This document shows, piece by piece, positions 18,416 to 20,562 of a DNA stretch of 64,000 nt. A program made the translations under genes and the position numbers. The stretch lies in the sequence record PP925828.1; one strand, 5' to 3'. Numbering within the stretch: the stretch's first letter is position 1; the number at the start of each line of letters is the position of its first letter. The stretch is from Escherichia phage SpoonbillGilly. Under the pieces are notes generated by a model. It did no database searches and had not been told where the DNA came from. It worked only from the letters and a program-made list of their open reading frames with translations.

Positions 18416-18616
18416 ATGGCAATGACAATAACACTTCCAAAGATTCAAGCAAAACTTAATTTGCTCTCCATAGCAAGAATCAATTACCAGGATAGTATCG
18501 GCACTCCAAACCAGAAAGCGTACAAAGATGCGTGGTTGAAAGAAGCTGCTGATTTAGCTGGTATGGCTGCTCAGTATAACAAAGAACTCAAAATGGAAAT
18601 CGCAGACGATGAATAA
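18416..18616 (+). CDS. Hypothetical protein (67 aa; ORF track start 18398 is TTG)
   Basis: ATG 18416 with GAGAGG 7 nt upstream; stop overlaps ligase start. Confidence 0.5.
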   Translation: MAMTITLPKIQAKLNLLSIARINYQDSIGTPNQKAYKDAWLKEAADLAGMAAQYNKELKMEIADDE

Positions 18617-19580
18617 TGTAAAAGACTTTATCAAACGTTGTCAAGAAGCGTACTACCAGGGAATGAGTCTTATTTCCGATGAAGAATATGATCGTCTGAT
18701 TAAAAGATTCCCGCTAGAGGAAGAAATCGGGCCGAAAGGTGATATTCCACATCTATATCGTATGTATTCTTTGCAGAAAGTCTATTACGGTCGTGGTGAT
18801 AAAGCTCCGTTCAATCCACTTGGTCAGGTTGAAACTGATAAGTTAGATGGTTGTGCGATTTCCCTATTATATATTAATGGTGAGTTTGTTCAAGCATTAA
18901 CTCGTGGTAACGGTATTCTAGGGAATGATGTAACGCATAATGTTAAAATGCTAAACATCCCCAAAACTATTTCCCAAAAAGTACCAACTCAAATCACTGG
19001 TGAAGTTCTCATTACTAAAGAAGTAGAGAACAAACGTAACTACGCTTCGGGTGCTATTAACCTGAAAGACAGCGATGATTTCATGCAACGTATTGGTGAA
19101 GGTGGTTTAATCTTCGTTGCATATGGTATCCAGTGTTCAGCGGAAACAGTCGGTATTACAGAAGCCTATTTAAAAGATATGCTTTGGCTAGAGAATGAGA
19201 ACTTCTTGACAGTTGTTAATGTTCGTGCCTTCTTTAAGTGGATTCCGACGGATGGTAAAGTTGTTCGTATTAACGACAATAATAAATTCTTCCGCGAAGG
19301 TTGGACTAATAAATTTCCTCGTGGTGCATTTGCTATTAAAGAGGATGAAGAAGGCGAAATTACCACACTTGTTAAAGTTGAATGGCAAGTAGGGGCTTCT
19401 GGTAAAGTAACTCCAGTTGGTTATTTCGAGCCGGTGATTATTGATGATGCCACAATCGTTAAAGCAACTCTTAATAACGTTGATTATATTAACGCTCTCG
19501 ATTTAGAGATCGGTTGCCAGATTCGAGTGATTCGTGCTGGTGGTGTAATCCCTTGTATAGTAGAGCGAGTATACGACTAA
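18609..19580 (+). CDS. NAD-dependent DNA ligase, N-terminal adenylation/OB part (split ligase subunit A)
   Basis: 323 aa; N-terminal Ia-like segment (EEYDRLIKR) and adenylation motif KLDG (TDKLDGCAISLLYINGEF). Confidence 0.8.
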   Translation: MNNVKDFIKRCQEAYYQGMSLISDEEYDRLIKRFPLEEEIGPKGDIPHLYRMYSLQKVYYGRGDKAPFNPLGQVETDKLDGCAISLLYINGEFVQALTRGNGILGNDVTHNVKMLNIPKTISQKVPTQITGEVLITKEVENKRNYASGAINLKDSDDFMQRIGEGGLIFVAYGIQCSAETVGITEAYLKDMLWLENENFLTVVNVRAFFKWIPTDGKVVRINDNNKFFREGWTNKFPRGAFAIKEDEEGEITTLVKVEWQVGASGKVTPVGYFEPVIIDDATIVKATLNNVDYINALDLEIGCQIRVIRAGGVIPCIVERVYD

Positions 19581-19630
19581 TTCGTAACCCTTTGCTACCC
19601 GTTTACCATGTCGGAATTATAAAGTGGTTA

Positions 19631-19659
19631 TTGACATTTTCGCCGCTTAGGTATATACT
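19631..19659 (+). promoter_or_regulatory. Near-consensus sigma70 promoter (TTGACA-17-TATACT) in the ligase intergenic gap
   Basis: TTGACA 19631-19636, TATACT 19654-19659. Confidence 0.6.
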
Positions 19660-19723
19660 ATTATCATTCAGTTGAGGGATAGAAAGTTATGGCGAGGGTA
19701 AGCAAAGTTAGTTAAAATTGTAG

Positions 19724-19752
19724 TTGCTAAATGCTTAAATACTTGCTATAAT
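19724..19752 (+). promoter_or_regulatory. T5-type early promoter (TTGCTA-17-TATAAT) with leader ATTTATATAAATTGATAAGGAAG
   Basis: -35 19724-19729, -10 19747-19752. Confidence 0.65.
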
Positions 19753-19782
19753 ATTTATATAAATTGATAAGGAAGAAATTTG

Positions 19783-20562
19783 ATGAAAATCGAAATTCCA
19801 ACACAATGTCCCTCTTGTGGTTCTAAGCTAGATCTTGTCAACGGGCAATTATTCTGTAGGAATAAGTCCAACTGTCCAGCGCAATCAAGTAAGTTAATCG
19901 AGAACTTCTGCACAAAAATGAAGTTAAAGGGCTTTGGCCCGAAAACTATTGAGAAGCTGGAGCTGACTAAGATCTCAGAACTGTTTTACCTGACCGAAGA
20001 AGATTTGGTCGGAGCTGTGGGTAGCAAGGTTGCCGCTAAGTTGATTAGCGAGTTAAATACTAAGGTTCGCGGAGACATTGACTTTGGTTCAGTTCTCGGT
20101 TCTTTAGGAATACCTCTTATTGGAGAGGTTGCAGCAAAGAAACTGTCCCAAAATTGCACTAGCTTTCACGATGTGAAAGCTGACGGCAAGGCTGGAGAAA
20201 ATTACAAAACTTGGCTAAATTCCCCACAAGGCAAGGATGTTATTGAATTACCGTGGAAATTCTCAACTGGTATTCGAGGTACTAAAGCTGATATCATCAT
20301 TACAGATGATTTAGTTGCCCAACCAAATGGAATCACGGTCTGTATTACCGGATCTTTGCAAGATTTTGCAAATCGAACGGATGCAACAAACTATTTAGAA
20401 AGTCTAGGATATACGGTTAAGAAGTCCGTTACCAAAGACGTCAAATACCTAATCTGTGAGGATGAATCAAAACGTTCTTCCTCATCTTATAAGAAAGCCG
20501 AAACGAATGGGATAGAAATCCTGTCGATTAAAGAACTATTGGAGAAAAATAATAATGTCTAA
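19783..20562 (+). CDS. NAD-dependent DNA ligase, C-terminal Zn-finger/HhH/BRCT part (split ligase subunit B)
   Basis: Cys4 cluster CPSCGSKL...CRNKSNCPAQ; HhH-like GFGPKTIEKL; C-terminal BRCT-like VCITGSL..; ATG 19783 after AAGGAAG. Confidence 0.75.
   Translation: MKIEIPTQCPSCGSKLDLVNGQLFCRNKSNCPAQSSKLIENFCTKMKLKGFGPKTIEKLELTKISELFYLTEEDLVGAVGSKVAAKLISELNTKVRGDIDFGSVLGSLGIPLIGEVAAKKLSQNCTSFHDVKADGKAGENYKTWLNSPQGKDVIELPWKFSTGIRGTKADIIITDDLVAQPNGITVCITGSLQDFANRTDATNYLESLGYTVKKSVTKDVKYLICEDESKRSSSSYKKAETNGIEILSIKELLEKNNNV

Follow-up and report, generated by a model that had tools for sequence, protein, structure and literature searches.

Does a DNA ligase that is encoded in two genes, with promoters between them, still act as one enzyme? 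The question is raised by a locus of Escherichia phage SpoonbillGilly (sequence record PP925828.1), of which a stretch of 64,000 nucleotides, here called the window, was analysed. Over this region, identity to Salmonella phage Stitch (Epseptimavirus, Demerecviridae) amounts to 98.8% and identity to phage T5 to about 95%; judged by its sequence, the window comes from a T5-like phage of an Epseptimavirus-like group. The locus is the T5-family two-gene NAD-dependent DNA ligase (ligA/ligB), with the promoters P-K28b and P-K28a lying between the genes, and both ORFs are annotated in relatives as ligase subunits A and B. The best explanation, to which we assign a probability of roughly 90%, is a two-subunit NAD+-dependent ligase in which LigA and LigB would associate non-covalently and whose genes are separated by promoters. 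The features of the region are listed below, with the evidence for each in brackets.

18313–18341, + strand: terminator-like hairpin closing the upstream transcription unit (12-bp stem, then a T run)
18358–18386, + strand: T5-type early promoter, TTGCTT-17-TATAAT, 5′ of the small ORF and ligA (read from the sequence)
18416–18616, + strand: small ORF of 66 aa from ATG, or 72 aa from TTG at 18398 (its 3′ end overlaps the ligA start)
18609–19580, + strand: ligA, subunit A, comprising domain Ia, the nucleotidyltransferase domain with KLDG and the OB fold, 323 aa (Pfam, PHROG, T5 identity, PDB match)
19581–19782, + strand: intergenic spacer, 202 bp, 32% GC, non-coding (stops in three frames)
19631–19659, + strand: promoter P-K28b, TTGACA-17-TATACT (promoter scan, T5 record, conservation)
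19724–19752, + strand: promoter P-K28a, TTGCTA-17-TATAAT with a TG extension (promoter scan, T5 record, conservation)
19769–19775, + strand: ligB Shine-Dalgarno sequence AAGGAAG (sequence; an RBS is annotated at the homologous position in Stitch)
19783–20562, + strand: ligB, subunit B, comprising the Zn finger, HhH and BRCT domains, 259 aa from ATG (Pfam, PHROG, T5 identity, PDB match)
20555–21322, + strand: gene of the DNA-binding protein D5 (shares 8 nt with the end of ligB)
21340–21368, + strand: terminator-like hairpin ending the ligB–D5 unit (13-bp stem with 8 GC pairs, then a T run)

An earlier note on this DNA had described a ligase split into two genes, the first half ending at 19580 and the second starting at 19783, and these boundaries coincide exactly with those of the two ORFs. 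Its division into an adenylation half carrying KLDG and a Zn-finger/HhH/BRCT half is likewise borne out by Pfam, by the tiling of TIGR00575 and by the four cysteines of the Zn finger, the HhH match being weak. In the ligA ORF, Pfam recognizes the adenylation domain (PF01653, E = 2e-23) and the OB domain (PF03120, E = 9e-22). LigA also matches PHROG 3359 (E = 4e-176) and chain 9hu3_A of the PDB (E = 2e-106), and has 95% amino-acid identity to T5 LigA. HMMER alignment with E. coli LigA (2OWO) places the KLDG motif, residues 78–81, on K115–G118, and pairs R99 with R136, E132 with E173, D215/G216 with D285/G286, and K244 with K314. The KLDG motif is invariant in the seven lineages aligned here. 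In domain Ia, the same approach pairs the segment LISDEEYDRL with EIPDAEYDRL of the E. coli enzyme. Y15, D24, Y27, and D28 of LigA are located within AYYQGMSLISDEEYDRL; Y15, Y27, and D28 are invariant in the seven lineages, and the position of D24 is occupied by D or N. The domain Ia residues that bind NMN, which in the numbering of E. coli LigA are Y22, D32, Y35, and D36, and which specify NAD+ rather than ATP, are thus present in LigA.

The ligB ORF contains a BRCT domain (E = 1e-8), and the HhH family HHH_2 gives a weak Pfam match below the cut-off. A TTG at 19780 lies one codon 5′ of the ligB ATG. The Zn-finger cysteines C9, C12, C25, and C31 are invariant in the seven lineages. LigB matches PHROG 3498 (E = 4e-137) and PDB chain 9hu3_B (E = 7e-80), and is 96% identical in amino-acid sequence to T5 LigB. 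Its residues 3–122 align to residues 402–529 of E. coli LigA, and residues 3–251 to residues 400–653 of T. filiformis LigA.

Taken as a pair, the two proteins follow the domain order of the bacterial single-chain LigA (E. coli 2OWO, T. filiformis 1DGS, TIGR00575), namely Ia, NTase, OB, Zn, HhH, and BRCT. They share with it KLDG, the equivalents of R136, E173, D285/G286, and K314, the four Zn cysteines, and the domain Ia motif Y..(I)(S/P)D.EYD. In contrast to the bacterial enzyme, the window ligase consists of two polypeptides, has about 38 fewer residues before the catalytic lysine, and possesses a divergent central NTase region. Compared with E. coli LigA, the central part of the adenylation domain lacks about 30 residues and does not align. 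The motif IV lysine (K290 in E. coli) is replaced by arginine in every split ligase aligned. Moreover, the two halves score 173 and 107 bits against TIGR00575, below the equivalog cut-off of 444 that applies to a single-polypeptide LigA; the pair would therefore work like LigA without being a canonical single-chain member of the family.

The alignment with bacterial LigA that the earlier note had proposed for defining the break point puts the cut between the OB fold and the Zn finger. On TIGR00575 (LigA, 652 positions), the ligA ORF covers positions 4–378 and the ligB ORF positions 388–651. On PHROG 3869, which represents full-length phage ligases, the corresponding ranges are 9–381 and 388–654. 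In the same way, the alignment of LigA with the fused ligase of the Klebsiella jumbo phage N1M2 (gp125, 657 aa) stops at residue 369, and that of LigB starts at residue 379. Since the halves tile the full-length models, the cut is a clean one and falls in the short linker that joins the OB fold to the Zn finger. LigA ends in ...IPCIVERVYD and LigB begins with MKIEIPTQCPSCGS, and the ends of both proteins are alike in the seven lineages. Judging from these alignments, the split probably cost at most a handful of residues and added no docking sequence. The fused phage ligases of PHROG 3869, N1M2 gp125 among them, onto which the window halves map head to tail, differ from the window pair in that they are encoded by a single ORF without internal promoters, and they are only about 25% identical to it. 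A pair of adjacent ORFs on the same strand, with the OB fold ending one and the Zn finger opening the other, is a mark of a T5-type split ligase, and the window displays it.

The gap between the genes, which the earlier note had put at about 200 bp with promoters at 19631 and 19724, is 202 bp long and holds both sites at these places. P-K28b (11 of 12 consensus positions) and P-K28a (10 of 12, plus the TG extension) are the two best sites on the + strand between 17900 and 21500. The number of promoter-like sites in this interval (7) equals the expectation from shuffled sequences (7.0), and the reality of the promoters therefore rests on their conservation and on the T5 record, not on the statistics of the scan. 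The T5 record AY543070 labels the spacer promoters 'promoter P-K 28b' and 'promoter P-K 28a', which is in line with the suggestion that the C-terminal half could be transcribed from promoters of its own. The window spacer aligns with that of T5 nearly without mismatch over both promoters, and both pairs of hexamers are identical and occupy the annotated places, the site at 19631 falling inside the P-K 28b feature of T5. A promoter is also annotated in T5 at the place homologous to 18358–18386, and the T5 counterpart of the hairpin at 18313–18341 lies just 5′ of an annotated promoter. The 21-nt core TATAATATTTATATAAATTGA is identical in the promoter at 18358 and in P-K28a, so that the same core precedes both ligase halves. 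The tandem sites are probably active in the window phage as sigma-70 T5 early promoters. The P-K28 promoters are reportedly among the strong T5 early promoters that the Bujard laboratory isolated by functional cloning during the 1980s. The spacer also contains a mini-ORF (MARVSKVS, 19689–19715), which was set aside as a conserved element when it proved not to be conserved in Klebsiella phage KPN4.

The arrangement of transcription follows from these elements with some probability. A terminator scan revealed no terminator-like site after ligA or in the spacer, and because ligA is not followed by a terminator, ligB and D5 probably receive read-through transcription as well as transcription from their own tandem promoters, as far as the hairpin at 21340. 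The gene at 20555–21322 carries the name D5 in the T5 annotation and D5-like in that of Stitch; as its first 8 nt are shared with the end of ligB, it is placed in the same transcription unit as ligB. The boundaries of both units are probable ones, read from hairpins, promoters, and gene overlaps.

To see how far this organization extends, seven lineages of Demerecviridae were aligned, comprising the window, T5, Klebsiella phage KPN4 (Sugarlandvirus), Providencia phage PSTCR5 (Priunavirus), and three Vibrio phages, VPT02 (Vipunavirus), VspSw_1 (Pogseptimavirus), and D375. Relative to the window, identity goes down to 52% for LigA and 46% for LigB, and across this range no change is seen in the catalytic lysine motif, in the remaining nucleotidyltransferase residues, in the four Zn cysteines, or in the BRCT core. 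A tandem pair of sigma-70 promoters is present 5′ of ligB in all seven, with nearly fixed geometry. The distal promoter of all seven reads TTGAC(A/G)-17-TATA(A/C)T, and its −10 element ends 122–126 nt 5′ of the ligB ATG. The proximal promoter reads TTGC..-17-TATAAT with a TG extension; its −10 element ends 29–30 nt 5′ of the ATG, and its TTG-N-TATAAT portion is invariant in seven of seven. TTG(A/G)GG and AATTGA elements downstream of the tandem promoters are conserved as well. In a wider tblastn search with LigB, 931 phage records were matched, and in more than 900 phage records both genes are present, always side by side.

In the Vibrio phages, the gap between ligA and ligB has gained further genes. 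In VPT02 it accommodates a DprA-like gene (PHROG 768, E = 7e-50, with no significant Pfam match), and in VspSw_1 and D375 it contains two small ORFs apiece. Every one of these inserts is on the ligA side of the promoter pair; none separates the promoters from ligB. An origin of the split by a homing endonuclease was considered and is unsupported, the ORF in the VPT02 gap encoding a DprA-like protein and not the homing endonuclease expected.

The earlier note thus described the locus accurately and read it, in the main, correctly; what it overlooked is that the split ligase and its promoters had already been described for T5 and its relatives. The T5 proteins are T5.116 and T5.117 (AAS77162/AAS77163, AAU05253/AAU05254), and T5 and the window have in common the break point, the 202-bp spacer, the positions of the two promoters, and the downstream neighbours D5 and then a DnaB-like helicase. 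The two differ only at strain level, apart from the additional ORF of 66–72 aa 5′ of ligA in the window, which is absent from T5 and has the hypothetical protein CPT_Stitch122 as its counterpart in Stitch. PMC1684257 cites Wang et al. (2005, Virology 332:45) for the split ligase of T5, which was published together with the genome of that phage. T5 ligA and ligB are listed in PMC3632103, and the A and B ligase subunits of phage Stitch are described in PMC4319617. In addition, PDB entries 9HU3 and 9I5I each contain a 339-aa chain named 'DNA ligase (NAD(+))' and a 248-aa chain named 'DNA ligase subunit B'. Chain B is 100% identical to Providencia phage PSTCR5 (Priunavirus, Demerecviridae), and this two-chain ligase has its domains split as in the window, with about 55% identity to the window proteins. 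Our search of the literature collection available, which covered PSTCR5, split DNA ligases, and K28a promoters, returned nothing relevant on these subjects, and found neither a paper describing 9HU3/9I5I nor enzymatic data on the exact LigA/LigB pair of the window. The split ligase is thus already known, from annotation in hundreds of T5-like genomes, from named promoters, and from a deposited two-chain structure. Because it has been annotated, published, and structurally solved in close relatives, we regard the feature as real but ordinary.

Assembly of the two polypeptides, one of the outcomes that the earlier note had envisaged, is most likely in view of the subunit A and B annotation in relatives and of the two chains in 9HU3 and 9I5I. 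The homology also makes activity of the window LigA/LigB pair most likely, and its stoichiometry and affinity would be expected to follow those of the homologous complex. Work on a related enzyme agrees with a need for both halves. A truncation of Haloferax LigN that was prompted by the discovery of the T5 split ligase, and that has the domain content of LigA (Ia, adenylation, OB), self-adenylates normally and is inactive in ligation (PMC1684257).

These observations also bear on the possibility that LigB has a role of its own. Made in excess over LigA from its two strong tandem promoters, it would then be a free nick-binding or DNA-binding BRCT scaffold, for which completing the ligase is an additional task or no task at all. 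It might, for instance, bring in proteins of replication or recombination, or determine at which of the natural T5 nicks sealing takes place. Such a role would fit the dedicated tandem promoter pair, whose geometry is conserved throughout the family and which stands against a single promoter for ligA, and it would fit the translational link between ligB and the DNA-binding protein gene D5. A requirement for expression of D5 and of the genes that follow it, however, accounts for the tandem promoters just as well. Moreover, the two genes are invariably paired and adjacent, the homologous A and B proteins were deposited as one complex, and a ligase cut back to the equivalent of LigA, with the C-terminal domains missing, is unable to ligate. 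A separate role for LigB is therefore, in our estimate, improbable, and no observation calls for it. Slightly less probable again is the more specific idea that the split is maintained for separate regulation, with LigB, driven by two strong tandem early promoters and co-translated with D5, being in excess and serving as an independent nick-binding BRCT adaptor that might choose which of the site-specific nicks of T5-type genomes are sealed and which are left open. If this were true, the fixed promoter geometry would reflect selection on the dosage of LigB, and not only on the expression of D5.

A single fused ligase, obtained by removing the spacer as an intron or by bypassing it through frameshifting or read-through, has the head-to-tail order of the halves in its favour and nothing more, and its probability is very small. 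The spliced intron that the earlier note had considered finds no support. Between 19300 and 20000, no Rfam family, group I and group II introns included, matched at E ≤ 1, and the folding energy (MFE) of the spacer RNA has a z-score of −0.74, no better than shuffled sequence. These two results, the length of only 202 bp, and the occupation of the spacer by promoters speak against a self-splicing intron or structured RNA, and the stops in all three frames together with the different frames of ligA and ligB speak against fusion by read-through or frameshifting; both readings were rejected. In addition, the spacer provides two conserved promoters and a separate RBS and ATG, the Vibrio relatives carry whole extra genes in the gap, and the PDB entries contain two separate chains. 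That the ligase is a decaying pseudogene, broken by insertion of a promoter cassette, is scarcely credible: each half does score below the NCBIfam cut-off for LigA, but both ORFs are intact, their catalytic and Zn-binding residues are invariant down to 46% identity, and the break point is common to more than 900 genomes, so that the invariant residues and the constant break point indicate purifying selection on a two-gene enzyme and not decay.

For the two-subunit ligase, a working model can be drawn from the homologues. LigA and LigB would be co-expressed early from matching promoters. LigA would be adenylated by NAD+, giving the lysyl-AMP intermediate at K78, and LigB would supply the DNA-clamping Zn/HhH/BRCT module that is part of the same chain in bacterial LigA. 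The two proteins would then associate non-covalently and seal nicks and Okazaki fragments during phage replication. Meanwhile, ligB and D5 would receive additional transcription from P-K28b and P-K28a, and the simplest reason for a promoter cassette having become fixed at this domain boundary may be that D5 and the genes that follow it have to be expressed strongly and early.

The value of the locus as a discovery is small. What remains of interest is a case from nature in which a multidomain nucleic-acid enzyme would function as two non-covalently associated chains, cut at a domain linker. Our comparison makes a modest addition, namely that the break point and the geometry of the tandem promoters are conserved in seven lineages of Demerecviridae. 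In these lineages, extra genes in the gap between ligA and ligB are tolerated only upstream of the promoters. The fixed break point and promoter spacing, found in at least seven genera or lineages, may aid annotators of Demerecviridae genomes and studies of promoters that have become fixed inside genes.

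The two ligase genes in the window are preceded by identical copies of a 21-nt promoter core, TATAATATTTATATAAATTGA, which spans the -10 element together with the initially transcribed region. Two diverged copies related to this core are located at higher coordinates in the window, and no copies are expected by chance in the window.

Copies of the promoter core
18381-18401, 21-nt core before the ligA unit
19747-19767, identical 21-nt core before ligB
28341-28361, diverged copy
62538-62558, diverged copy

Two small reading frames are associated with the ligase genes.

Small reading frames
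18398-18616, ORF of 66-72 aa between the terminator (18313-18341) and ligA, its 3' end overlapping the ligA start
19689-19715, 8-codon mini-ORF (MARVSKVS) after a GAGGGA box, in the predicted transcript from P-K28b, the distal spacer promoter

The ORF before ligA is annotated as hypothetical in Salmonella phage Stitch, whereas T5 lacks it and has only 88 bp between T5.115 and ligA. The mini-ORF is probably without meaning, because its ATG is not kept in Klebsiella phage KPN4. The TTG(A/G)GG box that precedes it is itself kept in 7/7 lineages.

In the adenylation domain of LigA, R220 (window 19266-19268) is aligned with the motif IV lysine of E. coli LigA, K290, and arginine occupies this position in all seven aligned split ligases. 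The central segment of the domain (residues about 137-213) is ~30 aa shorter than in the E. coli enzyme and is unaligned there. The ligB stop and the start of D5, the gene for a DNA-binding protein, overlap by 8 nt (ATGTCTAA, window 20555-20562), an arrangement that points to translational coupling between the two proteins. In the KPN4 and Eos records, a typo turns the annotation into 'NDP-dependent DNA ligase subunit B'.

A tRNA cluster is typical of T5-like genomes. ARAGORN found no tRNA genes in the whole 64-kb window (1-64000), which therefore lacks such a cluster. Matches to the T5-like region include records labelled as Campylobacter phage, such as A148, which is ~98% identical to that region of the window, and as Listeria phage; GenBank MG065642 is among the records with such host labels. 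Both host labels look doubtful.

In Vibrio phages, the gap between ligA and ligB harbors additional genes.

Inserts in the ligA-ligB gap, in coordinates of each ligase region
L003 1972-2535, DprA-like gene, Vibrio phage VPT02
L006 1819-2349, two small ORFs, Vibrio phage VspSw_1
L005 2051-2511, two small ORFs, Vibrio phage D375

The conserved tandem promoters are located downstream of the insert in all three phages. Vibrio Demerecviridae, as represented by VPT02, VspSw_1, and D375, have a hot spot for insertions in the ligA-ligB gap.
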